This document shows positions 1 to 25,000 of a stretch of 35,659 nucleotides of DNA, in pieces; the first letter of the stretch is position 1, and every line of letters starts with the position of its first letter. The notes under the pieces are model-generated. The model ran no database searches. It was not told where the DNA came from and was given only the letters and a program-made list of their open reading frames with translations. Position numbers and translations under genes: made by a program. Origin of the DNA: an uncultured archaeon (GTDB taxonomy: Archaea > Asgardarchaeota > Lokiarchaeia > Sigyniarchaeales > SOKP01); NCBI GenBank assembly GCA_964508365.1, contig CAZDTP010000042.1:1-35659 (forward strand), in the 5' to 3' direction.

Positions 1-1050
1 CCCCCATAAATTATGTGCAATTAACCAATGTCCTTGTTCTTCATAGTGCCATTTCCCTATGTTCCCGTCTGCAATTTCTGGACCTAACTCTTCTGCTTTA
101 TTTTGTAGAAAAATCTTATCTATCTGACTAACTTTCTCTTCAAGTTCTTTTTCTGAGTTTGCTTCTACTGTGTAAAACATTGTACCTCTTTTTCTCTTTA
201 AGTTTTCCCATAAGGGAAAAATTCCTTTTTCTGTGCCTACTCTTACTAATAAATCCATAAAGTACATCGAATCGTAAATATCAATCCCTTTACGCCTAAT
301 TTCTGTGAAAATTTTTGCTGATATTTCTTCAGATTTTCGAGGCATGAGAAATGTTTTATAATTCGCAAATGGAGGTTTTGGAAAAATTTGTAATGATGCT
401 TGGGTTTTCACTCCAAAAATACCGTTATCACCACAAAAAAGACTTGAGAAGTCAGGACCGTTTCCGAATCTATTAAACGGAAGTTTTGAATATTTGTTTG
501 CTTGCGAACCTGTTTCAATTATTTCCCCCGTTGGTAGAACGACCTCTAAAGAAACTAATTGATTCGTACATGACCCATATTTAGCACATCCCCCACCTCC
601 AACTGATTGATGAGAAATACCACCTCCAACTGAAGCTGTCAGTCCGGATCCAGGACCTAAACATCCGGTATATAATCCAAAATTGCATAAATAATCGTTC
701 AATTTTCCCCACGATATGCCTGCTTCGACTGTAACGATAAGATTTTCTTGGTCTAAATTAATTACATTGTTCATTCGCTTTAAATCCAAGACAATTCCAT
801 TATCATCAATGGGCTTGCTGCCACCGAATTCGCAGTCTCCACCTCCACGAGGTATCACAGCTATATTCTCCTCGTTAGCAATCTTAAGAATCTCAGAAAC
901 CTCTTGAGCATCCTTTGGTCTTATAACTATCTCTGGTACGCCTTGTAATACTGGATCTACATTCCTCGAATAAGCGTGTCTTACATAAATGCTATTTGAG
1001 ATGTACTTTTTTGAAACTATTCCTTCAAGCTTTTGATATAATTCTGGCAA
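1..1050 (-). CDS. FAD-binding oxidoreductase, VAO/PCMH (GlcD/D-lactate dehydrogenase/alkyl-DHAP synthase-like) family; 3' end runs off the window; missing from the ORF track
   Basis: Manual translation from TTG at 1050 (GAGGA upstream, in-frame TAA 6 nt upstream): MPELYQKLEGIVSKKY...PEIVIRPKDAQEVSEILKIANEENIAVIPRGGG...VLDLKRMNNVINLD...VTVEAGISW...SVGGG...KYG...LEVVLPTGEIIETGS; open to position 1. Confidence 0.9.
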   Translation of the reverse strand, partial: MPELYQKLEGIVSKKYISNSIYVRHAYSRNVDPVLQGVPEIVIRPKDAQEVSEILKIANEENIAVIPRGGGDCEFGGSKPIDDNGIVLDLKRMNNVINLDQENLIVTVEAGISWGKLNDYLCNFGLYTGCLGPGSGLTASVGGGISHQSVGGGGCAKYGSCTNQLVSLEVVLPTGEIIETGSQANKYSKLPFNRFGNGPDFSSLFCGDNGIFGVKTQASLQIFPKPPFANYKTFLMPRKSEEISAKIFTEIRRKGIDIYDSMYFMDLLVRVGTEKGIFPLWENLKRKRGTMFYTVEANSEKELEEKVSQIDKIFLQNKAEELGPEIADGNIGKWHYEEQGHWLIAHNLWG

Positions 1051-6812: not shown

Positions 6813-6945
6813 GATTATGATCTATTGAACTTAAAATTTAGTTTCGAAGGTTGAAACTATATTGTTTTCGAAATTAGGGGTATTTATATTCTAAGATTTA
6901 AATAAATTGTAAGACGAAAAATTTAATTTGTTTTTTAAAAATTGT

Positions 6946-7503
6946 ATGGAAGCTATAACAGTTAATAGATATGTTCAAGTTATTTGTCCTGTGTGTAAAG
7001 CACAGAACACGGTACGAATTCCTAAATCCGTAATTAACCACGCCTCGCAGTTAACTACCGTCTCTGTTCCTAAAGGTGAAATCTGTCCACATCACTTCCA
7101 ATTATTTCTAGATAAAAATTTTGCAATAAGGGGATACCAAAAAGTAGATTTCCAATTAAACCATGATGAGACCGATAAGCAAGATAAGTTTGATTCTAAA
7201 AACCACTTTGTTAACAGTTTAGAGCTCTATAATTCCAATATTTTAGATAAGAATAAACCTAAAACTATACCAAGAAAGCCAGATATTTATAAAGTTAAGA
7301 AATTTGTTGATATAAAAACTAGGATTAAATCTACAATGACTTTAAATGAAATTTACGATGAATTTTGGGAATTTATTGACGAAAATAATGAAATCTTTCG
7401 AAAATTCATTCTAAAAGATAAAAGAAGAAGGCTAATTTTAGGTATGAATGACCTAACGCAAAAAACTGAACATCGTTTACTTGAAATTTCTCCTAAAAAT
7501 TGA
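6946..7503 (+). CDS. Hypothetical protein with an N-terminal putative metal-binding domain (CPxC...CxHH)
   Basis: VQVICPVCKAQNTVRIPK...GEICPHHFQLFLDKNFAIRGYQKVDF. ATG 6946 is preferred over the track's TTG 6928 (same frame). Confidence 0.75.
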   Translation: MEAITVNRYVQVICPVCKAQNTVRIPKSVINHASQLTTVSVPKGEICPHHFQLFLDKNFAIRGYQKVDFQLNHDETDKQDKFDSKNHFVNSLELYNSNILDKNKPKTIPRKPDIYKVKKFVDIKTRIKSTMTLNEIYDEFWEFIDENNEIFRKFILKDKRRRLILGMNDLTQKTEHRLLEISPKN

Positions 7504-7612: not shown

Positions 7613-8764
7613 ATGACTATAAGTAGTCTAATTCAAAAAGAATTTAATAGAATCAAAAGTGACAAGAGAACTCTAATTTTATTGTTCACAATCCCAATGT
7701 TATTAATTGTAATTTTTGGACTAACTACTGGTGTCGGTCCTACTAAATTTTTTACAGCGGCAATCATAAGCTGTGATGAAATGCCTACTTACGATGATTT
7801 TCCCTCAAATTCTACCGAATTTGATAACGTTTTTATCTCGATAATAGAGCATAATTCAACAACATGGGACCTTCATAGTCAGTATAATTCCACGAATATT
7901 GAAGAATATTACCAAGCTTTTAATCGCTGTTTGTATTTGTTAAAAAACGAGCTTATAGATGTTTTCATTATACTTCCACCAAATTTTTCAGAGTCGATTG
8001 CATACAACTTTAATCCTGTATTAATCTATTACATCGATGGTTCTGACTCTAGCGCTGTTGGTGCGATAGAAGTTACAATCCAGGAACCACTCGCTTTATT
8101 TAGGGTAGAAATAAACATGATAGAAAATTTTACTATAATGGTCCCTCACCTGGAATTTGGTGTACCATCGTGGGAATCTCAATTATTAAACTATGCATTA
8201 TCTCTTATTTTACCAATTATTATAGTTGGAACTACTATGAACCTTACATCCTTATCTATTGTTTCAGAGGGTCCACTCCCAAGGATGCTTATAACTCCAA
8301 CAGCAAAAAGAGATATAATTTTCAGTAAGCTAATAGCAAACATAGTAGTAATGTTTATGCAAGCCACAGAAATATTCATTATGACCTCATTTTTTGGTTT
8401 GTATAGCTTAGGCTCACTATTTGATTTCTATCTAGTGTTAATGTTGATTGGGTTTACTGGAGTAGCTATAGGTTTATTTATTTCAGCGATTAGTCCAACG
8501 GAACAGGGAGCTAATCAGATGTATCTAATGATGTTTATCGTCATTATTATTTTCTCAGGAACTTTATTATCCGCAGAATCCTTAGGAGGAGCAAAATTCC
8601 TTGCCGATTTTCTACCGTTAAGTCATGCTTCAGTATTGATTACTGATATCACTCTAAGAGGATTACCACTAAATTTAGAACATGTGTTTTCTATGCTAAT
8701 GATTTCTTTAGTCTTTCTAACTTTTGCCTACATTGCTTATAAATTTAAAAAACTGGAGGTATAG
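7613..8764 (+). CDS. ABC-2 type permease with a large extracellular loop (YhhJ/ABCA-like)
   Basis: KEFNRIKSDKRTLILLFTIP N-terminus, 1 TM + ECD + 5 TM, ITP..K.DII.SK motif, PLSHA; several N-x-S/T sequons in the ECD. Confidence 0.9.
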   Translation: MTISSLIQKEFNRIKSDKRTLILLFTIPMLLIVIFGLTTGVGPTKFFTAAIISCDEMPTYDDFPSNSTEFDNVFISIIEHNSTTWDLHSQYNSTNIEEYYQAFNRCLYLLKNELIDVFIILPPNFSESIAYNFNPVLIYYIDGSDSSAVGAIEVTIQEPLALFRVEINMIENFTIMVPHLEFGVPSWESQLLNYALSLILPIIIVGTTMNLTSLSIVSEGPLPRMLITPTAKRDIIFSKLIANIVVMFMQATEIFIMTSFFGLYSLGSLFDFYLVLMLIGFTGVAIGLFISAISPTEQGANQMYLMMFIVIIIFSGTLLSAESLGGAKFLADFLPLSHASVLITDITLRGLPLNLEHVFSMLMISLVFLTFAYIAYKFKKLEV

Positions 8765-8824: not shown

Positions 8825-10000
8825 TTGTATCTAAAGAACAGTAGTATAAGGTTACTTAACCAAATTAAAAAAGAATTTCGTCTTTTATGGACAGATAAAT
8901 TTAACATTTTTATAGCGTTAATTGTACCTCCTCTTGTTGTAGTTTTAATAGGAGTAACTTCTGGTAGTCCTGGAAAGCTTGCAATTCCTATTGATTGTGT
9001 CGTTGTTTCCTATGATTCAAACACTTATATTGAAGAAAATAATTTCACAGAGTCTACCTTGGATGATTATAATCTTAAATATATCGAGGCCGTTAATTCT
9101 TCAGATTTATTAAATCTTGTCCAATTTTTTAACGCTACTGAGGAGATATATGCGATGGAAACCGCAAGAAGTTACATGAATTCTAAAAGGATTAATATTA
9201 TTATAGCAATTCCTGTCGACTTTTCTGAATTAATAAGTTGGGGGTATCCAGGTTTAATCGATTGCATAACAGATTCATCAGATATCCAAAAAATTCAAGT
9301 TAACTTAAATGCTGTTTACGATTCGATAAAAATTTTTGTCTCCCAAAATAATTTAACGCCTCAATTTGAACTCAATGGCTTTGAGGAATTCACGATTCCT
9401 GAAAACTATAGCTCTGGATATAATAATACCATGGTATTAGTTTTATCTTTTATGATAATAGGCGTTGGCATGGTCTCAACAATCTTAATTATCGTTCAAG
9501 AAAAGCCCGCTGCAAGGCTGTTACTCACGCCAGTTAAAAGAATTGAAATACTATTAGCTAAATATATAACTTACATTAGCGTTCTAATCGTTCAAAATAT
9601 TTCGCTCGTAATGACCGCCTTAGGCTTTGGTTTATATTTAGTAGGAACAGTATTTGATTTATTTCTAGCTTTATTTATTTTAGGTTTTGCCGGTCTTGCA
9701 ATTGGTATTTTTATTAGTACCTTAAGTAAAACTAAAACCCAAGCAAATCAGTTATTTTTTGCAACCTTTCTTGTTTTGATTCTTTTAAGTGGTATTTTCA
9801 TCCCCATTGAAGCTATGCCCATATATCTACAAGCTATAGCCTACGTGCTTCCCTTATCTCATGGAAACCCTTTAATTACAGGAATAATCACTAAAGGAAA
9901 ATCGGTATTTGGTTTTGATTTCTTCACTCTTTTAGGAGTAAGTGTTGTTCTCGTAGTGTTGTCATTTATTTTGTTTCAGAGAAGAAAATACGAGGTGTGA
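8825..10000 (+). CDS. ABC-2 type permease (paralog of the upstream gene); start uncertain, possibly 8765-8771
   Basis: KKEFRLLWTDK, LTPVKRIEILLAK, LLSGIFIPIEAMP, LPLSH. Confidence 0.9.
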   Translation: MYLKNSSIRLLNQIKKEFRLLWTDKFNIFIALIVPPLVVVLIGVTSGSPGKLAIPIDCVVVSYDSNTYIEENNFTESTLDDYNLKYIEAVNSSDLLNLVQFFNATEEIYAMETARSYMNSKRINIIIAIPVDFSELISWGYPGLIDCITDSSDIQKIQVNLNAVYDSIKIFVSQNNLTPQFELNGFEEFTIPENYSSGYNNTMVLVLSFMIIGVGMVSTILIIVQEKPAARLLLTPVKRIEILLAKYITYISVLIVQNISLVMTALGFGLYLVGTVFDLFLALFILGFAGLAIGIFISTLSKTKTQANQLFFATFLVLILLSGIFIPIEAMPIYLQAIAYVLPLSHGNPLITGIITKGKSVFGFDFFTLLGVSVVLVVLSFILFQRRKYEV

Positions 10001-10001
10001 T

Positions 10002-11036
10002 ATGGAGACTACCGATATTTCGAATAAGACAATGGTACTAGTAGAAAATTTAGATGTTATATTCGGAAAAAAGCGTATAGTTCATGATGTCTCATTTAAT
10101 GTAGAAGAGGGGGAGATCATTGGGATGTTTGGAATATCCGGAGCTGGAAAGACAACTATAATAAGGGTTTTAACCTGCCAGATTGAAAAAAAAAACTGGA
10201 ATGGCAAAGTATTAGTTACTGGTCTATCTCCTAGTAAAAAGGGAAACTACTCAAAAATTTTAAGCAATATCGGTTATGTACCTCAATTAGAACTGCTAAA
10301 TCTATATTTTGAACTAAATCCCATGGTTAATGTTGAAATTTTTACCTCTACTTATGGAATGGATAAAAGAGAAGCTAAAATAACTGCTGAAAAATTATTC
10401 AACATATTAGATATCCCCAAAGATACTTGGAAAAAAAGAGTTAAAAAGATGAGCGGCGGGGAAAAAAAGCGCTTATCAATGGCTATTGGATTAATACACC
10501 ATCCAAAAGTCTTATTTCTTGATGAACCCACAACTGGAGTTGATGCATCTAAACGCTACGATATTTTAAGCTATCTAAAGAAGTTAAACCAGCAACTAAA
10601 TACGACAATGTTCATAATTACTCATGATTTAGAAGCAGCGCTAATATGTGATAAAAGTGCTATTCTAAGGGAAGGGAAATTGCTTGAATTCGATACACCG
10701 CAAAAGCTTATAAACTCATTACCCAGTAATGGTTTGGTAGCAAGAATTTCAATTGAAAATTTAAACCAAGAGGTAATAAAGACCATTCAAAATTATCCTT
10801 CCATAGAAAAAGTGTTAAGGGTTGGAAACGAGACTATCGAAGTTTTAATGGATGATTTTGAAACTAACTTACCTAAATTGATGAAGTTCTTGTTTGAAAA
10901 AAAGTTAAATATTTATTCCATGAGCAGAGATGTTGCTAATTTTAGAAGATACTTTCAAATCAGAATACAAGAAGAGGAAGAAAAAGAAAACAGCAAAAAT
11001 CGTTCTGAACTATTGAATGAAGGTGACATTCCATAA
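10002..11036 (+). CDS. ABC transporter ATP-binding protein (DrrA/ABC-2 type) with a C-terminal regulatory domain
   Basis: Walker A GISGAGKTT, signature MSGGEKKR, Walker B LFLDEPT, H-switch ITHD; GAGGTG SD overlapping the upstream stop. Confidence 0.95.
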   Translation: METTDISNKTMVLVENLDVIFGKKRIVHDVSFNVEEGEIIGMFGISGAGKTTIIRVLTCQIEKKNWNGKVLVTGLSPSKKGNYSKILSNIGYVPQLELLNLYFELNPMVNVEIFTSTYGMDKREAKITAEKLFNILDIPKDTWKKRVKKMSGGEKKRLSMAIGLIHHPKVLFLDEPTTGVDASKRYDILSYLKKLNQQLNTTMFIITHDLEAALICDKSAILREGKLLEFDTPQKLINSLPSNGLVARISIENLNQEVIKTIQNYPSIEKVLRVGNETIEVLMDDFETNLPKLMKFLFEKKLNIYSMSRDVANFRRYFQIRIQEEEEKENSKNRSELLNEGDIP

Positions 11037-11077: not shown

Positions 11078-14000
11078 ATGTTACTCATTATTTTAGTAGG
11101 AACACCAACTCTATCATTAGTTTTAATTAATATTAGATGGACATATTTTATTAGTGAAACAGATGTAAGTAAAGCTAAAAACCTTGCGACAGTATTTACA
11201 AGTTCGCATCATAATCAAATAGGGTTGTTTGTGGAGCCTGATATTGATTCAAATTATAGAGCAATAGATTCCACAAATTTTACATTTACTAACATGTATG
11301 TCCCAGATTTAGTAGATCCTAACAATAACACCAATATACAATCCTTTCTAAAAGATATATTCTTTGATTATATATTTGAAAAACAAAATTACGATGGTTC
11401 TTATTCAGACATCGCGGGTTTAGGGAACCTATTTTCTACTTATATGGCTATTGAAACCCTGAAAATAGCGAATATCTCGTACCTCGAGAGAAGAGTTCAT
11501 CTTGGAGAAACAGATAATATAGCGAAGTATTTACTAAACTCTCTTAATGGTGGTGGATGGGGTTTTAGGTTTAATCAATTTCTAAACGATTCAGATATAA
11601 TTTCTACTTTTAGCGCTATTGAATTATCTTACAGCATATCTGAAACTTCTATTATTACAAACAAGAAAGTCGGAGAATTTATAAATTCTACATGGCTTGG
11701 AGGTAGTTATAGTTTAACTAACAACTCCTTAATTGTCACTCCTGAAACGACATTCTACGGCGTAAGAGCTTATTTAAGGATGAACATGTCCTATACTATA
11801 GGTGATTTAATAGCAATTGGGGCATATTTTAGTTTATTATATAATCCTCTTGACGGCGGTTATTTTAATCCCGAAACTAGCAGTTCGGATATACAATCTA
11901 CCTATTATTCTATATCTACCCTTGAGTTATTGGGAATTCCTTTATTAAATCCATCTAAAACAATGGAATTTGTGTTGAATTGCTCAAATATTAATGGAGG
12001 TTTTGGATTCCGTCCAAATACTTCAATATCAGATTTTAATTCGGGTTGGGCAGCAATGAAATCAATTGGAATATTAACACCGATGCTTACTCTCACAGTT
12101 GCAGATTCTAATTTAATAAAACAGATATCTGTTCAATATTATAATTGGTTGCTCTTTTTTCAAGCCAGGAATGGTTTGTTTGGCAAAATTACACTAGAGT
12201 CTAACTATTTTGGTGTTTTAACTTATCATACTATGGGATATTTAGATTCGATGCAAACTCCTCAATTTCAAGCGGTAAAAAATAAAATATTAGATTTTGT
12301 ATGGACATGCTATAATCTATATGATGGAGGATTTGGGTCTGAACCGGGACAGAACGCAACATTATTTTCTACTTATTGCGGTATTAAGCTTTTACAGATG
12401 ATTACACCGCGAGATCGTCCATGGTTTCAAACAGGACCTATCAATGTATTAAATGCGACTAGAACTTTCCTTGCTAACCTACAAAATCCTGATGGAGGAT
12501 TTAGAGTAGGTGATGATATAGACTATTTATTTTCTCTTTTTGGAGCTTTTTCCGTACTTTTTACGGATTTAATAAATATTAATGCATCTACTGTAGAAAG
12601 TACATATTGGGCATTAATTTCTTTAGAGCTGATAAACGGACTTCATATGATTCAATACAACAATTTTACGCATTGGGTAAGATCATGTCAAAACGCAGAC
12701 GGAGGATTTTCTATTGTTATAGGGTTTCACAGCGATATCATTTCGACATATTATGGACTCCAAATATTTAAAGAAGAATTCGTTCAAGGACCAATTTCAA
12801 AAATGTCAGCGATTAATTTCTTAATTACATCGCAAACTTCGGATGGTAGTTTCTCTTTACTGCCCATGATGGGTGATTTTTTAGACTTACCATCCTCATT
12901 TCTTACGACATACGTGGCCTCTAAAGCGTTATATGATTATGATTTTCAACCAGGAAACATTAAAAATGCCCTTTCTTGGTTTTCTGATTGTATCAGCGGT
13001 CGTACGGGAGGGGTTGGAGATAATCCAAATTTTGGAGCAGATTTAAGAAATTCTCCTTATGGAATCATAATAATTGATGAATTAAAATATGATCAAAGTT
13101 TCGATTCGAAACCGTGGAATGCGCTATTAATATATATTTTATTAACTGAAGCGGGTATTTTAAGCGTTTATGTATTGCTTATAATTCGCAAAAAAATTTC
13201 TTTGATAAAGCGTATTATAGAAAAAGTAGGTCTGGGAGGGAAAATTACACCATCCTATCTACAAAGGTTTCCAGCAATTCATTGTGAAAATTTCAGCGTA
13301 TATGCGGGTGGTAAGTTAATTGTTGATTCTGTTTCAATGAAGGTAGATCACGGCCAAATTCTGGGAATTTTAGGTGAAAGTGGAGCAGGTAAATCCACCT
13401 TTATTAAGGGTTTATTGGGGATGAGAAAAATAACCGGATTCTGCCAAATCTTTGGTTTAAATATAAATAAAAGAACTTCTAAAAAGATACGACCGATATA
13501 TGGGTATGTTCCTCAAGATCTAGGCAAAATTTATCATGAGTTCACGGTTCTTGATAATTTACTCTCATTTGGGAGTCAGTACGGTCTAACTGAGCAAGAA
13601 ATAATAAGCAGGTCTAAAAGACTCTTGCGAAGTTTAGAGATAGAAGATAAAATGAATGAATTAGTTAAAAATCTTTCAGGAGGTCAAAAACGTAGAGTCA
13701 GTATCGTAATCGGTTTAATCCATTCACCTATCTTTCTCATTTTAGACGAACCTACTTCGGGATTAGATCCGATAATTCGTGAAAATTTATGGCTAGCTTT
13801 AACTAAAATTAATGAGCAATTTGGTACAACATTAATTGTGATAACTCACTATCCAGAAGAATCTCGATTTTGTAATAGGGTTGCGATTTTTGGTAGGAAT
13901 AGAGGCGTTATAGATTTTGGGAAGCCTAAAGAACTATTAGCTCAGTTACCAGGCAAAGGACGCTCAATTGAATTATGTTTTAACACTAATCAAGAAAATA

Positions 14001-14224
14001 TGGTCCAAAGATTAGAATCTATAGATGGAATAGAAAATGTATTAGAAAATAAAGTAGGAACGGAATATTCAATATTCACTAACCTAAATGTCAAATCTCT
14101 TATTATTAAGATTGAAAACGAAGTAGGTAAGGATACAATCCAGGAATTAAAGCAAATCGATTCAAAAATGGAGCAATTTTTTAGATATAAATTAATCGAG
14201 GTACCAAAAATTGATAAGCTCTAG
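11078..14224 (+). CDS. Fusion: signal anchor + about 11 prenyltransferase/squalene-cyclase-type (alpha/alpha barrel) repeats + TM helix + intact ABC ATPase
   Basis: Repeats QNYDGSY, NGGGWG, WLGGSY, YNPLDGGY, CSNINGGFG, FQARNGLFG, CYNLYDGGFG, LQNPDGGF, CQNADGGF, QTSDGSF, CISGRTGGV, each followed by a D/T-x-x-S/T-T-Y/F-like helix; TM res 681-703; GESGAGKST, LSGGQKRR, LILDEPT, ITHY. Confidence 0.88.
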   Translation: MLLIILVGTPTLSLVLINIRWTYFISETDVSKAKNLATVFTSSHHNQIGLFVEPDIDSNYRAIDSTNFTFTNMYVPDLVDPNNNTNIQSFLKDIFFDYIFEKQNYDGSYSDIAGLGNLFSTYMAIETLKIANISYLERRVHLGETDNIAKYLLNSLNGGGWGFRFNQFLNDSDIISTFSAIELSYSISETSIITNKKVGEFINSTWLGGSYSLTNNSLIVTPETTFYGVRAYLRMNMSYTIGDLIAIGAYFSLLYNPLDGGYFNPETSSSDIQSTYYSISTLELLGIPLLNPSKTMEFVLNCSNINGGFGFRPNTSISDFNSGWAAMKSIGILTPMLTLTVADSNLIKQISVQYYNWLLFFQARNGLFGKITLESNYFGVLTYHTMGYLDSMQTPQFQAVKNKILDFVWTCYNLYDGGFGSEPGQNATLFSTYCGIKLLQMITPRDRPWFQTGPINVLNATRTFLANLQNPDGGFRVGDDIDYLFSLFGAFSVLFTDLININASTVESTYWALISLELINGLHMIQYNNFTHWVRSCQNADGGFSIVIGFHSDIISTYYGLQIFKEEFVQGPISKMSAINFLITSQTSDGSFSLLPMMGDFLDLPSSFLTTYVASKALYDYDFQPGNIKNALSWFSDCISGRTGGVGDNPNFGADLRNSPYGIIIIDELKYDQSFDSKPWNALLIYILLTEAGILSVYVLLIIRKKISLIKRIIEKVGLGGKITPSYLQRFPAIHCENFSVYAGGKLIVDSVSMKVDHGQILGILGESGAGKSTFIKGLLGMRKITGFCQIFGLNINKRTSKKIRPIYGYVPQDLGKIYHEFTVLDNLLSFGSQYGLTEQEIISRSKRLLRSLEIEDKMNELVKNLSGGQKRRVSIVIGLIHSPIFLILDEPTSGLDPIIRENLWLALTKINEQFGTTLIVITHYPEESRFCNRVAIFGRNRGVIDFGKPKELLAQLPGKGRSIELCFNTNQENMVQRLESIDGIENVLENKVGTEYSIFTNLNVKSLIIKIENEVGKDTIQELKQIDSKMEQFFRYKLIEVPKIDKL

Positions 14225-15917
14225 AGATATAGAGTTGGAACGAATCAGGTTAAAAATACTAGATGCTGTACGTTTCTCTAAGCGTTTCTGGATGACATTC
14301 AGAGAAAAAACATTTGGAATTGCTTCGATTATTAATTTAATCTATAAAAAGTCGTTTTTCGAAGTTTTGTTTTTTACTAATAGAGATGTTATTGAAAAGG
14401 GAGTACCTTTATTAAAGATATACACACCTCTAGAAGATGAAATTGATTTTAATGAAATTATATTTGAACCAGATTTTGACGAAGACGGATTGATAAATCC
14501 CGTAAAAATTATCCATAGAATGAGAAGGATTATTAGTTCGGAATTCCAAAGTCACCTAATAATATTAAATACTGAAATTAAACTAGTTGACGATAGATTT
14601 GAGAATTATCAAATTAAAGCTAACCCGTACGACCGAGAGATAAGAATCTCTTACTCTGATTTTGATGTTAAACTTAAAATTAATTTAGAAAAATATCCGT
14701 TTTTACCAACCTTTTCTTTTTCAAGATCATTATCTAAAATTATCCCTGAGAGAGAATTTACAGAAGATGTGATGATTAAAAATTGGGACACAGAAAATCC
14801 CCCTCACATTTATGAAATTGTTGAAAGAATATGTGATATTGTCTCTGCAAGAGTAAAAATAAAAAAGTTAAAAGAAGATTCTCAATATTTAGTTTTAAAT
14901 CGTGTTACCTTAGGCAATATCATTGATAAATTATCATTCAAAATTCACAGAGGAAAATCGATAGGAATAATATTTGATGAAAGAAGCTTAACCAAAATTG
15001 ATCCTAGGATGGAATTAATGATTTTATTCGACACCATAGCGGGTTCACAACACGACTATTCTGGTTCAATCGAAATTTTTGGAAAACCTACTCTGTTGTT
15101 AAGTCAATCTGAGAAAGAAAAAATCTTTATTCTACCTCAAGCATACGATTCCACAATAAGAAAAATGAAGATCAAGAAAGCCATTCAATATAAAATTGAT
15201 TTACACGAAATTTACAAGAAAAAGAAGGATAGCTTCAGTTTAATGTTAAAAAATGCTGGTTTTACTCAACATTTAGATGAGTTAATGGAAGATTTTTTGA
15301 AGACAAGGTCGTATAAAATCAATCGCCAGAAAGTATATATAAAAAAAGTGTTAGAATCAACAGGATTACTAAATAAGAAAAATAAGAAATTCTCAAAGTT
15401 GACTCCCTTAGAATATCTTCTTTTCTCAATTACCAGGGCACTAATCCAAACACCTACAATAATCATGTTTTCTATACCATTTGGGATTTTAGGCAAACTC
15501 GAATATGAAAAGTTTAATTCATACATGGATAAAATCAAAGAAAATTTTCATGTAGTTCTAATATTCCATGGTCCGGAAGAAATTATATCAAAATGCGACC
15601 AAATTCTAATGATTACAAAAAATATTTCAAAAATAGGAACCATTAAAGACTACATTGAAGAATTACCTCAATATGGTGAAATTTTGAGTATTGAATTGAA
15701 CAATCCAGACGATTCCTTAATTCATAAACTTAAACAAATGAAGGAAATAGATGTATTAATTGAAGAAAGAAAAAATGAGAAATTTAAAATCTTCATAAAA
15801 AATAGTATTACGGATGTAATAATCCAAATCACAGAACTATTGGGGCCAACCCTTTATAGTTTTAAAAGATTCACCGCCTCCATCGGTGATTATATGGAGT
15901 TTATTGAAAATAGATGA
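14211..15917 (+). CDS. Degenerate (pseudo) ABC ATPase with an N-terminal UBC/UEV/RWD-like region
   Basis: NBD skeleton recognisable (LSFKIHRGKSIGII; KKFSKLTPLEYLLFSITRALIQTPTIIMFSIP; LIFHGPEEI...CDQILMI) but Walker A, signature and Walker B DE are replaced; C-terminal domain resembles those of the two upstream ATPases; KINLEKYPFLP...KNWDTENPPHIYEIVERI upstream. Confidence 0.7.
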   Translation: MISSRDIELERIRLKILDAVRFSKRFWMTFREKTFGIASIINLIYKKSFFEVLFFTNRDVIEKGVPLLKIYTPLEDEIDFNEIIFEPDFDEDGLINPVKIIHRMRRIISSEFQSHLIILNTEIKLVDDRFENYQIKANPYDREIRISYSDFDVKLKINLEKYPFLPTFSFSRSLSKIIPEREFTEDVMIKNWDTENPPHIYEIVERICDIVSARVKIKKLKEDSQYLVLNRVTLGNIIDKLSFKIHRGKSIGIIFDERSLTKIDPRMELMILFDTIAGSQHDYSGSIEIFGKPTLLLSQSEKEKIFILPQAYDSTIRKMKIKKAIQYKIDLHEIYKKKKDSFSLMLKNAGFTQHLDELMEDFLKTRSYKINRQKVYIKKVLESTGLLNKKNKKFSKLTPLEYLLFSITRALIQTPTIIMFSIPFGILGKLEYEKFNSYMDKIKENFHVVLIFHGPEEIISKCDQILMITKNISKIGTIKDYIEELPQYGEILSIELNNPDDSLIHKLKQMKEIDVLIEERKNEKFKIFIKNSITDVIIQITELLGPTLYSFKRFTASIGDYMEFIENR

Positions 15918-15954: not shown

Positions 15955-16761
15955 ATGTTAAAAAGTTTATATATTTTAGATCAAAACGGAATTTTGTTAT
16001 ATTCCAAAGAGTTCATTAGGGAACAGCAATACGACGACAATATCTTAATAGGATTTTTCACTTCAATCGCTAATTTTAGTCGGGAAGCTTTAGGAACGGC
16101 TGTAAAAAATGTTGACCTCGGAGAAAATAATAAACTTATTCTCGCTCCAATCGAGGATGAAGGTCTACTTGGGGCTGCAATTATAAGTTCAAATGATAAT
16201 AACGAATTAGTAACAAAAATAATTAGAAATATCTTGCAAGAATTTATTGACTCCTATTCACCTGATTACGATCACGAAAAAATCATTAATGAAGAGATGG
16301 AGAAAATTATTCAAGATGTTTTAAGAACTAAAATGATTCATTCACCTATAATAAGGATCGCACTTTCTTGGCTAATTATCGCTCCATTAACGATACTTTT
16401 AGTTTTTGCTAGCATTAATTTAACACTTTTTCTCTATATGACTTTCGATCTCAATCAATATTTCACACCCGATCAAATGTTTTCGAGATTTTTCCCTGCG
16501 TTAATTCTTTTATCTACTGGAAACATTGTAATACTATTTCTGTTCCCAAATTTACTTCTTGGCTTTTTATCTCCTAATAGAATTATCGCTGTAGTGAATT
16601 CGATTATTTATTTAGTTGTTACAATTATTTTATTTGCTTACTCATCTGAACCTGCTTTTGTTTATATTATCATAGGTCATTTACCTTTAACATTGATTTT
16701 CTCACTGTTTTTCTTATTTATCGGAATCAGATCGTCGTCAAAGAGATTTTTGAAAAAATAA
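15955..16761 (+). CDS. Longin-like domain protein with about 4 C-terminal TM helices
   Basis: MLKSLYILDQNGILLYSKEF...ILIGFFTSIANFSREALGTAVKNVDLG...LGAAII...IIRNILQEFIDSY matches the longin beta-beta-alpha-beta-beta-beta-alpha pattern; ATG 15955 follows GAGGA; four hydrophobic segments follow. Confidence 0.72.
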   Translation: MLKSLYILDQNGILLYSKEFIREQQYDDNILIGFFTSIANFSREALGTAVKNVDLGENNKLILAPIEDEGLLGAAIISSNDNNELVTKIIRNILQEFIDSYSPDYDHEKIINEEMEKIIQDVLRTKMIHSPIIRIALSWLIIAPLTILLVFASINLTLFLYMTFDLNQYFTPDQMFSRFFPALILLSTGNIVILFLFPNLLLGFLSPNRIIAVVNSIIYLVVTIILFAYSSEPAFVYIIIGHLPLTLIFSLFFLFIGIRSSSKRFLKK

Positions 16762-16915: not shown

Positions 16916-18448
16916 TTGAAAGGTGATAACGCACAGAATAGGGGTTTCGAACCAATTATAAAAAAATACGAAAAAGAAAAAGCACTCGTTCTGGAGAGTA
17001 TTTCGGAGCTTATCGTCTTTCAAGATAAAAAGCAAAATATTTTATGGTTAAATAAAGCAGCAGCAGATTCCGTTGAAAAGACACAAGAAGATTTAATAGG
17101 AGGGATATGTTACTCCGTTTGGCACAATTCTAATAAAATTTGTGTTAATTGCCCTGTAGAACTCTCGTTAAAAATAGGTGAACCTACATCTGGTGAAATT
17201 ACAACTCCACATGGGAGAACTTTTTTCATAAAAGGTTTTCCCGTAAGGGATAATGAAGGAGAAATAATAGGAGCAGTTGAAGTTGCCAGGGAAATAACCA
17301 AACTCAAACAAACTGAAAAAAATTTAATTGATTCTGAAGAAAAGTATCGGAACCTATTTGAGAGTTCCCCTTATTCTATCGGCATATTTGATTTAGACGG
17401 AACTTTAATTGATTGTAATAAAGCTACAGCGAAGCTTTTATCTACTCATAATTTAGAAAATGATATTATTGAAAAGAATTTTAGAGAATTTTGGGGACAT
17501 CATGAGAAAAATAAGCCACTGATCCCATTATTCGAAGGTATCCTTAATAAGCTAAAAAAAGACGGAGAAACATTAGAATTTGAATTTCCTATATATCGAT
17601 CAGCGGGAGGTGTATTATGGGCTCACGCTATCGCTTCATTACTAAAAATAGGAAACGAGGAAAGAATTCGATTTATTGTTCAAGACATTACAGAAAGAAA
17701 ACTTGCCGAGCAAGAATTAGAAACATCGGAAATAAAATATCGAGAAGCGTATAATCGTATTAATTTTTACAAAGACATCTTTTCTCACGATATTAACAAT
17801 ATCTTTCAAAATATCCAAACATCAGTAGAACTTATCGATTTAAATGAGGAACAATCGATTGGCATTAAGAAAGACGATGAATTGTTGGATATTATTAGAA
17901 AACAGATCAAGAGAGGGACCAATTTAGTATCAAACATAAGAAGATTATCGGAAATTGAAAATAAAGACTTAACCTTACAAAAGGAAGAAATTATTAAAGT
18001 TTTAAAAGATGTTATAGACGCTTTAATTAAAGTATTTAAAAATAGAGAGATAAATATTCAGATTTATAATGAACCAAAAGAAGTATATGTTAAAGTAAAT
18101 GAACTTTTACCAGATATATTTGAAAACTTATTAATCAACGCTGTAAGACATAATCAAAATTCAATTATTGAGATTCTTATCAAGTTTTCAAGGGTAGTGA
18201 AGGATGGAGTCAATTTTATCAAACTCGAATTTATTGATAATGGAATTGGTATTTTCCCTGAAATGAAAGAAAAAATCTTTCAGAGAGATCTGGTTGAGAG
18301 AAAGGATAAAATTGGGTTAGGACTTGGTTTAACACTTGTTAAGAAGATAGTCGGAAACTATAACGGCCAAATTTGGGTGGAGGATAAGGTTGCAGGAGAC
18401 CATTCCAAAGGAAGTAATTTTATAATTATATTACCGGAGGAGGTTTAA
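16916..18448 (+). CDS. Soluble PAS-PAS histidine kinase
   Basis: Two PAS/PAC repeats (VAREITKLK; VQDITERK), H-box FSHDINN, N-box FENLLINAVRHN, G1 DNGIGI, G2 GLGLGL. Confidence 0.92.
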   Translation: MKGDNAQNRGFEPIIKKYEKEKALVLESISELIVFQDKKQNILWLNKAAADSVEKTQEDLIGGICYSVWHNSNKICVNCPVELSLKIGEPTSGEITTPHGRTFFIKGFPVRDNEGEIIGAVEVAREITKLKQTEKNLIDSEEKYRNLFESSPYSIGIFDLDGTLIDCNKATAKLLSTHNLENDIIEKNFREFWGHHEKNKPLIPLFEGILNKLKKDGETLEFEFPIYRSAGGVLWAHAIASLLKIGNEERIRFIVQDITERKLAEQELETSEIKYREAYNRINFYKDIFSHDINNIFQNIQTSVELIDLNEEQSIGIKKDDELLDIIRKQIKRGTNLVSNIRRLSEIENKDLTLQKEEIIKVLKDVIDALIKVFKNREINIQIYNEPKEVYVKVNELLPDIFENLLINAVRHNQNSIIEILIKFSRVVKDGVNFIKLEFIDNGIGIFPEMKEKIFQRDLVERKDKIGLGLGLTLVKKIVGNYNGQIWVEDKVAGDHSKGSNFIIILPEEV

Positions 18449-18814
18449 CTGGTTTCAATTTTTATCGTGGAAGACGATTTGTCCTTACAAAAGTTATATG
18501 AGATGATGATTTTCACATTTGGATTTAAAGTTGTTGGAAAAGCGAACAACGGAAAGGAAGCAATTGAAAAATTTTATGCACTAACTAATAAACCCGATGT
18601 AATTTTAATGGACCACCGTATGCCCGTTCAAAATGGAATAGATACAGCGTTAATATTGTTAAAACTAAAAAAACCTCCGAAAATCATCTTCACAAGTGCG
18701 GATATATCTATTAAAAACCGAGCGTTAGCAATAAACGGTTTAACATTTTTAGAAAAACCATTTACTGTGAAGGCTTTACATGATGAGATTATAAAAGTAT
18801 TAGGGATAAGTTAA
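18449..18814 (+). CDS. Stand-alone response regulator (CheY-like receiver); start extended from the track's 18467 to CTG 18449
   Basis: (L/M)VSIFIVEDD beta1/acidic pocket, phospho-Asp in VILMDHRMP, FTSAD, EKPF; GGAGGAGGT SD at 18436-18444. Confidence 0.88.
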   Translation: MVSIFIVEDDLSLQKLYEMMIFTFGFKVVGKANNGKEAIEKFYALTNKPDVILMDHRMPVQNGIDTALILLKLKKPPKIIFTSADISIKNRALAINGLTFLEKPFTVKALHDEIIKVLGIS

Positions 18815-19024: not shown

Positions 19025-20512
19025 ATGAGCTATAAATTAGCAGATGATAAGGATTTAGACGCGATGATTGGTATTGTAGGAAAAGAGTATGCCACCAATA
19101 ACAAGGCAATTACAGCGTCATATCTTTCCAAATCTGTAATGGGATTAGAGTCACAAATTCCTGATATCGTCGTACGCCCCAAATACATTGAAGAAATTCG
19201 TAAAATTCTACTTTACTGCTCTGCAGAAAAAATTGCAGTCTCACCGATTTCAGCCGGACTATCAGGCGGCTTTGCGTGTCCAACTATTAAGCCTGCGGGA
19301 GTTATGCTTGATTTAGGTAGAATGAATAGAATTATCGAAGTCGATACAGATAATCGATACGTCGTAGTCGAACCGGGAGTCACGATTGGAGAGCTTTGGG
19401 CTTACATGCATAAAAATTATCCAGAGTGGGCGCCTCCCGTACCAGACGGTGCTCCACCAGCTTCTACCGTAATGGGTGATGCTATCGATCGAGGGTTTTC
19501 CCTTTATACTAGCTCCGTTGGTCCACAAGGTGATAACTTCATGTGCGGTGAAATAGTGTTTCCAAACGGAGATATTGTGCGAACTGGTTCTTGGGCTCTT
19601 CCATTTGCGAAACCGTTCTATAAATATGGATTAGGTCCAGATATCTGGTCCTTTTTAATGGGTTCACAAGGAGCTTTAGGCGTAATGACTAAAGTCGCAG
19701 TTAAAATATATCCTCATCCAAAATTTAAGACTGTGGTTGTGTGGGGTATGTCCAATCCTGAGGATATGCAGAACCTAACACTAGAAATAGGAAAACAAGA
19801 ATTTGGAATTGCTCACAACACCGTTATGGTTCAAGGTGGGAATTATCCTTTAGTAATGACGCGTTGGCCAAAGGATAAAGTTCCTCACGATTATGAATTC
19901 TACGAACAGTTAGGAATTAGTAGGTGGTGGATGAATTGGGAGTGCTGGGCACAAACTCAAGAAGAGTTAGATTATGTAGTTAATAGAATCAATAAAATGG
20001 CTGAAGATTTCAAGAAAAATAGAGCTAAAGACCCTGATAGTATAAAACCTCAGGAACTACATCCCAAACAAATCGCTAGCAGATTGAAGAAACCCAATAA
20101 GATTGCAGTTCCTTATTCTTTTTGGGAGGCAGGATTTTTATTCATTACGTTCTATACCCCATGGAACGAATGCGCCCATTTTGCTGAAATGTATACTGCT
20201 GCTATGGAGAAATATGGTTTTCCACCAGTCATGTGGATTGCTAGTATTGAACGTTGTAGACAAGCAATTTGTATGCCAATTATTTGTTTCGATAGCACAA
20301 AACCATCAGATTTCGAAAAAGTTCAAGAGATGAATAGAGAAACAACAGAATACGCGCTTAAGCAAGGGTGGTTGAATTATCGTCCAGATCCATACATCCA
20401 CGCACCTCTCACTTATTCTCAAGCAGGAATGTATTGGAAATATTTGAGGATGATAAAGAAGATGTTTGATCCTAATCAAATTATGCATCCTGGGAGGCTT
20501 GCTCTTCCATAA
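19025..20512 (+). CDS. FAD-binding oxidoreductase, VAO/PCMH (GlcD-like) subunit
   Basis: PDIVVRPK...E, MLDLGRMNRIIEVD, VVEPGVT, GEIVFPNGDIVRTGS, GSQGALGVMTK, FDPNQIMHPGR. Confidence 0.88.
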   Translation: MSYKLADDKDLDAMIGIVGKEYATNNKAITASYLSKSVMGLESQIPDIVVRPKYIEEIRKILLYCSAEKIAVSPISAGLSGGFACPTIKPAGVMLDLGRMNRIIEVDTDNRYVVVEPGVTIGELWAYMHKNYPEWAPPVPDGAPPASTVMGDAIDRGFSLYTSSVGPQGDNFMCGEIVFPNGDIVRTGSWALPFAKPFYKYGLGPDIWSFLMGSQGALGVMTKVAVKIYPHPKFKTVVVWGMSNPEDMQNLTLEIGKQEFGIAHNTVMVQGGNYPLVMTRWPKDKVPHDYEFYEQLGISRWWMNWECWAQTQEELDYVVNRINKMAEDFKKNRAKDPDSIKPQELHPKQIASRLKKPNKIAVPYSFWEAGFLFITFYTPWNECAHFAEMYTAAMEKYGFPPVMWIASIERCRQAICMPIICFDSTKPSDFEKVQEMNRETTEYALKQGWLNYRPDPYIHAPLTYSQAGMYWKYLRMIKKMFDPNQIMHPGRLALP

Positions 20513-22090: not shown

Positions 22091-25000
22091 TTGACTAACG
22101 TGGAAAATAAGACGGCTTACCCATATATAACAGAATTTAAAAAGGAGCCGTTTAAGTCTTTTGTTTTAACAAATAGAAAGGATATCGGTAATTTCTATTT
22201 AAGTAATTACAATAATGTTCTAGAATTATATCAGGATCATAATAAGAACTTAATTGAAGAATCGTCTTTAAGTTTGGAGGATATTTTTTGGTTTCTCCTT
22301 CTGAGGAAATATCTCAAACAAAAAGTGGACGACCATAGTGAAGGTTTCTTAGAATTTATAAAAAAGTGTGAAGTTGAGATAATTGAAAAAGATCAATTGG
22401 GATTCAAATCATCGCCTTATTCAGTAAAAAGACCTGATATTTGGTCAACATACCATGCTCTAGCAAGTTTAGAATTATTAGGAGTGCTCCAAAAGTACTT
22501 ATCGTCTAAAGGCCAAGATATTGTTATTGAAGAAATTAAGAATTTTATTTATGATCATAAAAGAAATAATGGATTCTTACATTGCCTTGACAAACAATGC
22601 GAATTATGTAATCAAGGACCTTTAGGAAAGACTTTTTACTATGTTGTTGAAAATCTCATGCTTATCGGTGTTGATGTAAGGGTTTTCATAGAGCAATTCC
22701 GTCAATATTTAAGAGAAAGAAAAAAAGATGTATCATTAATTTTTAAACTCCTCAGTTTAAAATTCTTTGATTTAGATTCAGATGTAAAAGATAAGGAAAT
22801 TCAGCATTTCTATCAATTTCAACAGGCAAATGGAGGTTTTGTCATAGATTCAATTGAAGGAGATATTGAAACTACATTTTGGTGCGTAAATCTTCTAGAT
22901 ATATACTCATGGCTTATAGATTACAACTCAGCAAGAATTTATTCTTTTATCGCTGAGAAATTAGACTCATTATTGAAAGATAAAGAAAGATGGAATTTAA
23001 TCGCGTTAAGAAATGTTACTAAACTAGTAATCTTGCTATCTATTATCTGGAATCGTTTTATCGAAGAAATCGAAAGAGTCGTATTTAAGCGGTTAGAGAT
23101 TTATAATTTTATCGATTTAAACCAGATAAAAACTACCTTTGGGTTAAACCATGGAGTAGAGGAGATTGTACTCTATATCAACCTCAATTATATGTTTAGT
23201 TTGAAGAATATCGATATTACTTCGGAATTTAATAAATACCTACAAAATTTAAGTCATGGTAAAAAGATAATAATCCAAGAAGTTTACGAACAATTAAGAA
23301 ATAATAGTATTGTATCACTTTCGGATATTTACAAAAAATATAAAAGTTCCTACCAACAGGAACCTGTGAAATTAAAAGAAGACATCTTTCCGATCATATA
23401 TGACTTAATAAGCAACCACTTTTTTGAAGGGGAGATCAGAGCAAAAAAGGCTTATTTATTCAAAACAAAATTCTACTTTTGTTTAGATTTTTTATACAAA
23501 AACATAATTATTTCCGATAAGGAAATTAACACCGAAAGATTGTTTGAAGAAAAAGCTAAACTGAAGGAAATTAAAAATGATATTTACAATATGACTTTGA
23601 AGCTTAAAAACACTATCCCTCTTATCAAAGAAGAAATAGAATCATATCTTTTGATAGACGAAGTTGATTTCGCTAAACAAAGGTTGAAGTTTGTATTGAG
23701 AGATTCATTAATGGAAGCAGATTTTCTTAATAAAAACATTGAAACATCTTTCAATCAAGATCTTATATACATCAACCTACAAGCTGCTTTAGGTTCTGAA
23801 ATATCTCAATGGAACAAGTCATACTCTTTATTGCAAAAGCGTTTAGGTGAATTAAATAATTATCTCCTAGAAAAGATCCAAGAGATGGAAAAATTAAAAA
23901 AATTTAGCATTATTTTAGACGAACTAGATAATAGAATATACGATATTCAGGATCAGATAAATCGCGAGATAGATTCTTTTAAAAATTACATTACGGAAGT
24001 TCTTGAGAAGGGTTATGATGAAGAAAAATTAAATCTTATTATAAATGCATTTAATAAAATAGCTCAGGTTGTAAGCAAATACGATTCAGTTATTTACAAA
24101 GTCTCGCATCAAATTACATCTAAAGAGAAAAAGATTGCAAAGAACCATAAGAAAATAATATATAAATGGGTTAATTTTAAAGAGAACTTTGATTTGATTT
24201 TTGCTGATTATACTAATGGTTTTCAGTTTTTCAACGAATTAAATAGACAGATAGGAAATGTTAAAGATAATATACAAGAAGGAATTTTGCAAATTAAAGA
24301 GGACGCTAAAAATAGTGCGTCTCAAAATCAATATCAAGACGCATTTAATATTATCAAGATGGAAGCGGATAACCTACTAAAAGAAAAAACAAAGGAAATT
24401 CAAAGCTTAAAATTAAATGTTAAAAAAAACACTTCCTTTAAACAGAAACTATTCCCGCTTTATAAATATATAAATGAAAAGCTCGACAGTCTGGAAGAAA
24501 ACATTATTGAGTTCATAGCCGAACAGGAGCAATTTTTAAAAGAAAAGGTTATAGAAGAAAGAAATAGAGCAAGTGTTGAGGATTTTGATAGTTTTGTTTC
24601 CGATACTATCCAAAATTTTAAGAATAAGTTAGAAAATTACAGGAAAAACATTGAGCAAAACAAAACAAATAAAATTCCGAATGTTATTAGTGGTTTTGAT
24701 GCAATTCTAATTGATTTTAACGAAAATAATAAGATTTTTTCTAAAAAGCTAATAAATCTAAAAATCATTATCCCAGATCTTGATGAAAGTTCGATAAAAA
24801 TAATACAATGGGAGAAATTTAAAGTTTTTATTAGTGATGAAGTTGATAAACTGAAGGAAGAATATGTGAATGGCATTATTTCTCAAGAAATTATACTCAT
24901 GAGTGAGGAGGAGCACACAGACACAATTAGTATAAAAAAACTAGCCGATAAGCTAAAAATCAAATGTAAAGCGATAATTCCAAGAATTAAAGACATGATA

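Follow-up and report, generated by a model that had tools for sequence, protein, structure and literature searches.

The question raised by this locus is why an archaeal transporter operon that encodes two intact nucleotide-binding domains (NBDs) for its two permeases carries, in addition, a third NBD-like protein in which the motifs for ATP are gone. The locus lies on contig CAZDTP010000042.1 of an uncultured archaeon (assembly GCA_964508365.1; Asgardarchaeota; Lokiarchaeia; Sigyniarchaeales; SOKP01), and we refer to the whole stretch analysed (35,659 nucleotides (nt), positions 1 to 35,659 of the forward strand, about 30% G+C) as the window. Our analysis confirmed that the gene at 14211..15917 (+) codes for a conserved Asgard-archaeal fusion, which joins two non-catalytic domains of the RWD/UEV (ubiquitin E2 variant) type to a motif-less ATP-binding cassette (ABC) ATPase domain. 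A literature search returned no description of a fusion between UBC-like domains and a pseudo-NBD or of the operon in which it resides.

According to its open reading frame (ORF) and translation, the protein (568 amino acids (aa), hereafter the target) consists of UBC-like domain 1, UBC-like domain 2, the pseudo-NBD and a C-terminal regulatory (R) domain. The ORF starts with a TTG codon, is preceded at a distance of 8 nt by the Shine-Dalgarno-like sequence GAGGT and overlaps by 14 nt with the upstream gene for a toroid-NBD protein. This start position is common to the target and its orthologues, which mostly have a length of 564-584 aa. AlphaFold2 (AF2) modelled the full-length protein with a predicted local distance difference test score (pLDDT) of 88.1 and a predicted template modelling score (pTM) of 0.83. 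An initial annotation, made from the letters of the DNA, had already described a dead ABC ATPase carrying a segment that resembles ubiquitin-conjugating enzymes (E2s), and the strings it quoted were all located: GIIFDERS at residues 252-259, LTPL at 397-400, MFSIP at 419-423, YPFLP at 162-166 and KNW...PPHIYEIVERI at 190-207. The proposed E2-like segment (14589-14845) corresponds to residues 127-212 and contains the latter two strings.

The C-terminal half is a true homologue of ABC NBDs. A profile built from 36 family members was compared with the sequences of the PDB and matched 1vpl_A over profile positions 236-444 (E 3.9e-18); 494 PDB sequences matched at E<=1, and ABC proteins made up all of the best 60. 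In line with the profile, Foldseek placed the full-length model next to 4yer_A (TM_1403, E 1e-13; 1e-13 to 1e-10 across the structures of this group), and the alignments span both the NBD and the C-terminal domain of 4yer, NosF and ABCA1/3/4/7. The pseudo-NBD defined in this way comprises residues 223-488 (14877..15674 (+)). NCBIfam ABC models match residues 365-484 only (best E 5.6e-8), and Pfam gave no match on the whole target, as ABC_tran (PF00005) fell short of E 0.01. When the profile is aligned to ABC NBDs, non-consensus residues appear at the P-loop, the LSGGQ and the hhhhDE sites: i) GIIFDERS (14964..14987 (+)) is aligned to GLIGPNGAGKT of 1vpl in place of Walker A, ii) LTPL (15399..15410 (+)) replaces LSGG of the signature and iii) in MFSIP (15465..15479 (+)) S421 and I422 replace the acidic residues D/E of Walker B.

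The same loss is found throughout the family. Among 136 relatives surveyed for motifs (118 close and 18 distant), none has a P-loop at the proper site; the one match to the Walker A regular expression (GEFLKGKS in P0033) was not mapped to the site and is taken as chance. A signature of the form [LFYIMV]SGG[QEKR] is likewise absent from all 136, the target reading LTPLE at the aligned position, and matches to the Walker B expression fall elsewhere in the relatives, whereas the site itself reads IIMFSIP in the target. With P-loop, signature and Walker B acids lost, ATP hydrolysis by the target is not expected, and ATP binding is improbable as well, as judged from its motifs. Both neighbouring NBDs are canonical, with GxSGAGK[ST], [ML]SGG[EQ], LDE and the H-loop intact. 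Profile, Foldseek and motif survey agree with what the initial annotation had described, namely a dead NBD in which the skeleton and the C-terminal domain persist.

Some secondary features of the NBD are kept in part of the family. His453 of the H-loop region (FHGPEE, 15564..15581 (+)) is retained in close orthologues and lost in distant ones, and an LPQ-like Q-loop is present in close orthologues only. The helical subdomain carries a Lys-rich insertion (residues ~320-370, 15168..15320 (+), from alignment and AF2), in which residues 354-369 have a pLDDT <50 and which distant family members lack. The R-domain (residues 489-568, 15675..15914 (+)), delineated by AF2, Foldseek and the alignment with the neighbours, has a predicted beta-alpha-beta-beta-alpha-beta-alpha topology with invariant E518 and E523, and can be aligned with the R-domains of both neighbouring NBDs. 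A common NBD fold followed by a small alpha/beta R-domain is what the target shares with the ATPases of ABC-2/type V exporters (TM_1403, 4yer; NosF of NosDFY; ABCA1/3/4/7; DrrA, TIGR01188), together with a genomic setting among ABC-2 permeases. In contrast to these ATPases, the target is devoid of Walker A, signature and Walker B acids, contains the helical-subdomain insertion of ~50 aa and 222 extra N-terminal residues, and is the third NBD-fold protein beside two canonical ones.

For these 222 extra residues, an AF2 model based on a 39-row alignment reached a pLDDT of 91.9 with five concordant models. It consists of two units, each running from an N-terminal helix through a four-strand meander into helices, and a long helix (residues 97-129) joins the two. 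The second unit, UBC-like domain 2 (residues 101-222, 14511..14876 (+), from VIA and Foldseek), is predicted to contain the four-strand meander, short helices at residues 172-190 in the place of the E2 beta-flap and a C-terminal helix at 200-215. We searched 48,161 representative chains with VIA-align without a Foldseek pre-filter and ran a second-look search besides. The UBC superfamily (E2, UEV or RWD) accounted for all of the best 50 rows in each VIA search, and the second-look run listed 69 chains at Z>=8 with a top Z of 10.2. Residues ~107-217 superpose on the E2 2h2y with Z 9.8-10.2 and a root mean square deviation (rmsd) of 2.5-2.9 Å over 98-103 residues; the UEV-like domain of VPS37A (8e22) follows with Z 9.7, the RWD of GCN2 with Z 8.8 (range of the GCN2/RWDD2 RWDs 8.6-8.8) and the UEVs of Tsg101/Vps23 with Z 8.0-8.2. 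Foldseek matched domain 2 to UbcH7 and UBE2D with a probability of 0.97-0.99. The fold check that had been suggested for this segment thus matched E2, UEV and RWD structures.

As expected from the initial annotation, this E2-like fold comes without the catalytic residues. HPN is absent from residues 160-200 in all 36 aligned family members, and the same region has no conserved Cys, with a Cys in 2/36 aligned rows only. At the position 8 residues upstream of W192, which in E2s holds the catalytic Cys, the target has a Thr. W192 itself (14784..14786 (+)), which precedes the last helix, is invariant in the alignments A2 and A4. Between strands 3 and 4 the family alignments reveal a YPxxP turn (YPFLP, residues 162-166, 14694..14708 (+)) at the place that the YPXXXP triple turn takes in UBC/RWD folds; both prolines of Y162-P163-x-x-P166 are conserved, but the family lacks the last Pro of that motif. 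The YPXXXP triple turn is a feature of the UBC/RWD fold, although the lobes of DmFANCL are without the motif (PMC3173227). The same study takes the exchange of the E2 beta-flap for a helix as a criterion for the RWD type, with its alpha-beta4-alpha-alpha fold. The model of domain 2 has this fold and such a helical element instead of the flap, which marks it as RWD-type and not as an E2 that handles ubiquitin (PMC3173227). Overall, the single RWD/UEV domains (2yz0/7e2k, 2daw, 8e22, 2f0r/3r42) and the E2s (2h2y, UbcH5) superpose on domain 2 over 97-110 residues at 2.5-4.2 Å and Z 8-10.2, sharing the YPxxP turn between strands 3 and 4 and the conserved Trp before the last helix. Domain 2 differs from them in having neither Cys nor HPN nor a strict YPXXXP, and in giving no hidden Markov model (HMM) match to PF00179, PF05773 or PF05743.

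UBC-like domain 1 (residues 1-100, 14211..14510 (+), from AF2, VIA and omega, see below) is predicted to form a helix at 4-21 and strands at 26-31, 34-42, 47-54 and 68-71; its residues W27, G36 and E51 do not vary even among members with only 20% identity. That residues ~15-115 might be another degenerate copy had been suggested before, and the structural alignments bear this out for a second, more divergent copy in residues 1-100. Alone, unit 1 aligned with the RWD of Ltn1 (8aaf_e, model 1..113, Z 7.3), and both units together aligned with Knl1 (4nf9_A, target 25..214, Z 8.0), with the URD of FANCL (3zqs_B, target 10..210, Z 7.5) and with FANCL in the Fanconi anaemia core complex (9a0j_L, target 1..210, Z 8.2, 176 residues). 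The top Foldseek match of residues 1-222 was likewise the central domain of FANCL (E 2.4e-3, probability 0.97), in a list that is coherent though weak. Other Foldseek matches were Knl1, CENP-O/P, Ctf19-Mcm21 and chain C of the BRCA1-A complex (6gvw_C, 383 residues), which we take to be BRE; the resemblance to BRE/BABAM2 named in the initial annotation does appear.

A close architectural parallel is the double RWD of FANCL (3k1l, 3zqs; PMC3173227), which like the target has two consecutive non-catalytic UBC lobes in one chain and a helix in the place of the beta-flap; VIA aligns 169-176 residues at Z 7.5-8.2. The two are not similar in sequence, and the rmsd of ~7.5 Å implies another arrangement of the lobes; moreover, the target is archaeal, has no RING or ELF domain and is joined to an ABC pseudo-ATPase instead. 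Tandem UBC-like scaffolds without catalytic residues are also found in the C-terminus of Knl1 (4nf9/8ppr_K), CENP-O/P (7pb8), Ctf19-Mcm21 (3zxu/5mu3) and BRE/BRCC45 (6gvw_C). Their likeness to the target does not go beyond the fold, with Z ~8 at an rmsd of 7.6-8.4 Å and Foldseek E values between 4e-3 and 0.2, and these modules work in chromatin and kinetochore complexes and not on membrane transporters.

Word-indexed and exhaustive searches found the family in Asgard archaea only, under names such as Promethearchaeota, Loki-, Hel-, Hod-, Hermod- and Thorarchaeota, and nearly all members are annotated as hypothetical. There are 178 proteins at E<=0.001, and the listed orthologues all have an uninterrupted reading frame. 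The family occurs in 92/399 genomes of the phylum and is concentrated in one taxonomic family (78/134). The ratio of non-synonymous to synonymous substitution rates (dN/dS, omega), taken from pairs with unsaturated dS, is 0.14-0.21 overall, 0.07-0.11 in lobe 1 and <0.36 in every domain; all four domains are under purifying selection, and domain 1 is the most constrained part of the protein. The initial annotation had reserved the label of a decaying pseudogene for the case that orthologues keep canonical motifs; omega is low and the orthologues lack these motifs as well. The tandem module was never met without the pseudo-NBD or joined to anything else: the only shorter stand-alone forms were truncated fragments of the same family (49-91% identical), and longer forms that fuse the N-terminal tandem to other domains were not found, which is weak evidence.

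A few members deviate from this picture. In one genus (G169/G170/G174/G175) the orthologue has 619-625 aa with extra sequence after the first lobe, and the match falls into two pieces, while in G172 the gene is apparently split into three ORFs. The distant P0141 (748 aa) bears an N-terminal extension of ~200 aa with KKAPEKK/PVKK repeats ahead of the tandem lobes, a Lys/Pro-rich tail that resembles those of histone H1. Contig DATKTW010000086.1 (L030), filed as "Candidatus Nanopelagicaceae bacterium", encodes the target, its 4-TM neighbour and the kinase, response regulator and oxidase described below in copies with 90-98% identity, and is most likely a mis-binned Asgard contig. Two loci labelled Odinarchaeota (L016 and L021) group with Promethearchaeota sequences in the tree.

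The genomic context is equally constant. Upstream of the target the operon encodes two ABC-2 permeases (7613..8764 (+), Pfam ABC2_membrane_3 E 1.1e-18, and 8825..10000 (+), E 2.6e-23), a canonical DrrA-like NBD with an R-domain (10002..11036 (+), ABC_tran E 1.4e-24, TIGR01188 E 3.7e-55) and a toroid-transmembrane (TM)-NBD-R protein of 1048 aa (11078..14224 (+), Prenyltrans E 7.5e-31, ABC_tran E 5.4e-25). The latter is composed of a signal anchor, a prenyltransferase-type alpha/alpha-toroid ectodomain of ~650 aa, a TM helix, a canonical NBD and an R-domain. The ectodomain contains many N-x-S/T sites, and the linkage of an ABC ATPase to a toroid outside the cell is uncommon in its own right. Downstream follows a 268-aa 4-TM protein (15955..16761 (+), from the translation), in which a soluble N-domain of ~110 aa precedes about four TM helices. 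Its profile gave neither a longin nor another match against PDB sequences, and its neighbours in the ESM Atlas are unnamed Asgard clusters.

The order permease, permease, plain NBD, toroid-TM-NBD, target and ~270-aa 4-TM protein recurs in 45 Asgard species-level genomes, as far as each contig reaches. It is the same in two loci (L048 and L049) whose orthologue is only 20-23% identical, and the 4-TM protein lies directly downstream in 39/45 loci, i.e. wherever the contig reaches, including these two. Across 135 genomes of one family, 75 have both the target and the toroid gene, 56 have neither, four have the target alone and none has the toroid gene alone; completeness in the four target-alone assemblies is 68-89%, and three of the four have the target gene close to a contig end (at most ~600 nt away).

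With regard to its origin, the best paralogue of the pseudo-NBD within its own genome is the toroid NBD (E 9.5e-30, compared with 1.3e-15 for the plain NBD). Only these HMM scores suggest that the dead NBD may have arisen from a duplication of the toroid NBD. In a maximum-likelihood tree of the three NBD types with outgroups, the pseudo, toroid and plain NBDs form three clades with 100% support, each covering 13-14 of the 14 sampled loci and with a largely congruent internal order; the tree gave no resolved order among the clades. As the loci in these monophyletic clades are almost identical, the dead copy must be old and co-inherited, and it predates the sampled divergence. Its branch is several times longer than the others: among the three NBDs of the window the terminal branches are 0.11 versus 0.02-0.06, and at the distant locus L049 they are 2.57 versus 0.36-0.45.

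Taken together, we consider it reasonably probable that the target is a non-catalytic accessory subunit of an Asgard ABC-2 (type V-like) exporter, which docks through its pseudo-NBD and R-domain and offers the RWD tandem as an interaction platform. The architecture, the dead motifs, the purifying selection and the operon linkage with co-occurrence are observed, whereas a place in the transporter complex, the way of docking and the function as an adaptor are inferred. In such a scenario P-loop, signature and Walker B acids would have been lost before the sampled lineages diverged, and pseudo-NBD and R-domain would have survived as a docking module on the cytoplasmic face of the transporter. Docking could use NBD/R-type contacts with the upstream toroid-NBD protein, which seems most plausible, or contacts with the downstream 4-TM protein. 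By analogy to FANCL, Knl1, CENP-O/P and BRE, the RWD tandem might then recruit a cytosolic partner to the transporter or relay a regulatory input. The strict conservation of the operon fits the regulatory pseudo-ATPase subunit of the initial annotation, while the role as such stays at the level of a proposal.

Several points weigh against this interpretation. The UBC-like assignment of the N-terminal half is a fold-level one, made from the predicted structure only, and none of the sequence-level comparisons matched this half to an E2, UEV or RWD family. Pfam at E<=10 found nothing in ten N-terminal regions, including PF00179, PF05773 and PF05743, and the N-terminal profile (A6) gave only a chance match to Rpb8 (E 0.21) against all PDB sequences. 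A search for PF05773 in the own genome yielded nothing, but neither did the control genomes. In the ESM Atlas the best scores of residues 1-222 were 0.77-0.78, including a cluster of UFC1-type E2s, which makes these matches a lead at most. In addition, hhalign of lobe 1 against lobe 2 gave a probability of 0.4%, i.e. no sequence-level sign of an internal duplication, and the scores of the tandem and of unit 1 are middling (Z 7.3-8.2). The tandem alignments to FANCL and Knl1 have an rmsd of 7.5-8.4 Å and a TM-score of 0.27-0.36, and because of this rmsd the geometry of the lobes differs from that of the eukaryotic tandems. The module is furthermore absent from many complete genomes of the same genus, and genomes of 99-100% completeness are among those without it; on this basis it is accessory and dispensable, and is gained or lost as a unit. 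Finally, as there are two permeases but three NBD-like proteins, the dead NBD could be filling a genuine NBD position.

This last possibility leads to the rival that survives best, which we nonetheless regard as rather unlikely: the pseudo-NBD would be a stoichiometric subunit in a motor position, paired head-to-tail with one active NBD (that of the toroid protein being the likeliest) on one permease in an asymmetric transporter, as in ABC exporters with one degenerate site, and the RWD tandem would be a cytosolic appendage. The count of three NBD-fold proteins against two permeases speaks in its favour, as do the close paralogy to the toroid NBD, the 14-nt overlap with the gene of this protein, and the LPQ-like Q-loop, the H-loop His and the R-domain kept in close orthologues. 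In ABC proteins, NBDs pair head-to-tail and form composite ATP sites. A partner that lacks both Walker A and signature would therefore cripple both composite sites and not just one, and the operon already supplies its two permeases with two fully canonical NBDs. Besides, distant members have lost the residues of the Q-loop and H-loop, and the tree gives no resolved sister relation to the toroid NBD.

Compared with the accessory-subunit interpretation, it appears quite improbable that the UEV/RWD tandem binds ubiquitin or a ubiquitin-like protein and couples the transporter to the Asgard ubiquitin system, either for regulated turnover or for ubiquitylated cargo. The fold likeness to the ubiquitin-binding UEVs of Tsg101/Vps23, to the UEV-like domain of VPS37A and to BRE would be in line with this view, as would the three E2-like proteins encoded in the genome (the real E2s score with PF00179) and a gene for a VWA and RING-like protein just after the operon at the distant locus L048. 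However, in the 46 loci compared there is no gene for ubiquitin, E1, E2 or E3 inside or adjoining the operon, the three E2-like genes of the genome sit on other contigs, and E2, UEV and RWD scores lie within ~1 Z unit, i.e. without a specific UEV signal. Tandem UBC-like modules are also mostly scaffolds and not ubiquitin readers (PMC6601020). The link to ubiquitin-like modification that the initial annotation had put forward found no support in the gene content or in the RWD-type helix. We reject as scarcely credible that a copy of the adjacent NBD gene is decaying here and that the E2-like fold was produced by the modelling: the loss of every catalytic motif, the several-fold faster evolution of the pseudo-NBD and the missing Pfam match could be read in this way, yet the listed orthologues have intact frames (178 proteins at E<=0.001; 92/399 genomes), omega is 0.07-0.36 in every domain, the N-terminal part is the best-conserved region, and five concordant models (pLDDT 92) have structural matches that all belong to one superfamily.

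To our knowledge, fused consecutive folds of the UBC superfamily have so far been described in eukaryotic machines only, namely FANCL, kinetochore proteins and BRE. The Asgard family offers a widespread and strongly conserved example of a tandem RWD with defined genomic partners and is of real interest for eukaryogenesis; the binding partners of a tandem RWD in a prokaryote, and the task of a completely dead NBD within a transporter operon, thereby become open to direct tests. The six-gene ABC-2 system with its extracellular toroid is a candidate for a machine specific to Asgard archaea that handles membranes or lipids and has regulatory parts of a eukaryote-like kind. Tromer et al. (2019; PMC6601020), who mention one Asgard RWD-like sequence only, proposed that eukaryotic RWDs radiated from an archaeal non-catalytic E2. 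Still speculative, and in our view doubtful, is the further step that in the tandem module an archaeal relative of the double-RWD scaffolds of eukaryotes (FANCL, Knl1/Zwint, CENP-O/P, Mediator, BRE) has survived; the architecture would then predate eukaryotes, and its first service would have been that of an adaptor to an ABC exporter of membrane lipids or isoprenoids, whose 4-TM subunit would have another eukaryote-type regulatory domain.

Some further genes accompany the operon. A 191-aa protein with a weak CpXC/zinc-ribbon-like match (6928-7503 (+)) travels with it, its gene preceding the operon directly at some loci and following shortly after the 4-TM gene at others, and may be a seventh, mobile member. 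Only some loci have a PAS histidine kinase and a single-domain response regulator (16916-18814 (+) and 19025-20512 (+)) after the operon. A FAD-linked oxidase is encoded further downstream, and it retains 82-98% identity also at loci where that of the operon proteins is ~60%. The window also encodes a 1470-aa protein (22091-26503 (+)) with a weak N-terminal Prenyltrans match (E 2.6e-7) and a weak PCI match near the C-terminus (E 1.4e-3). At L048 (8700-11077) the VWA/Ssl1 and RING-like protein is accompanied after the operon by a VTT-domain membrane protein, and an Arf/Ras/Roc GTPase gene lies nearby.

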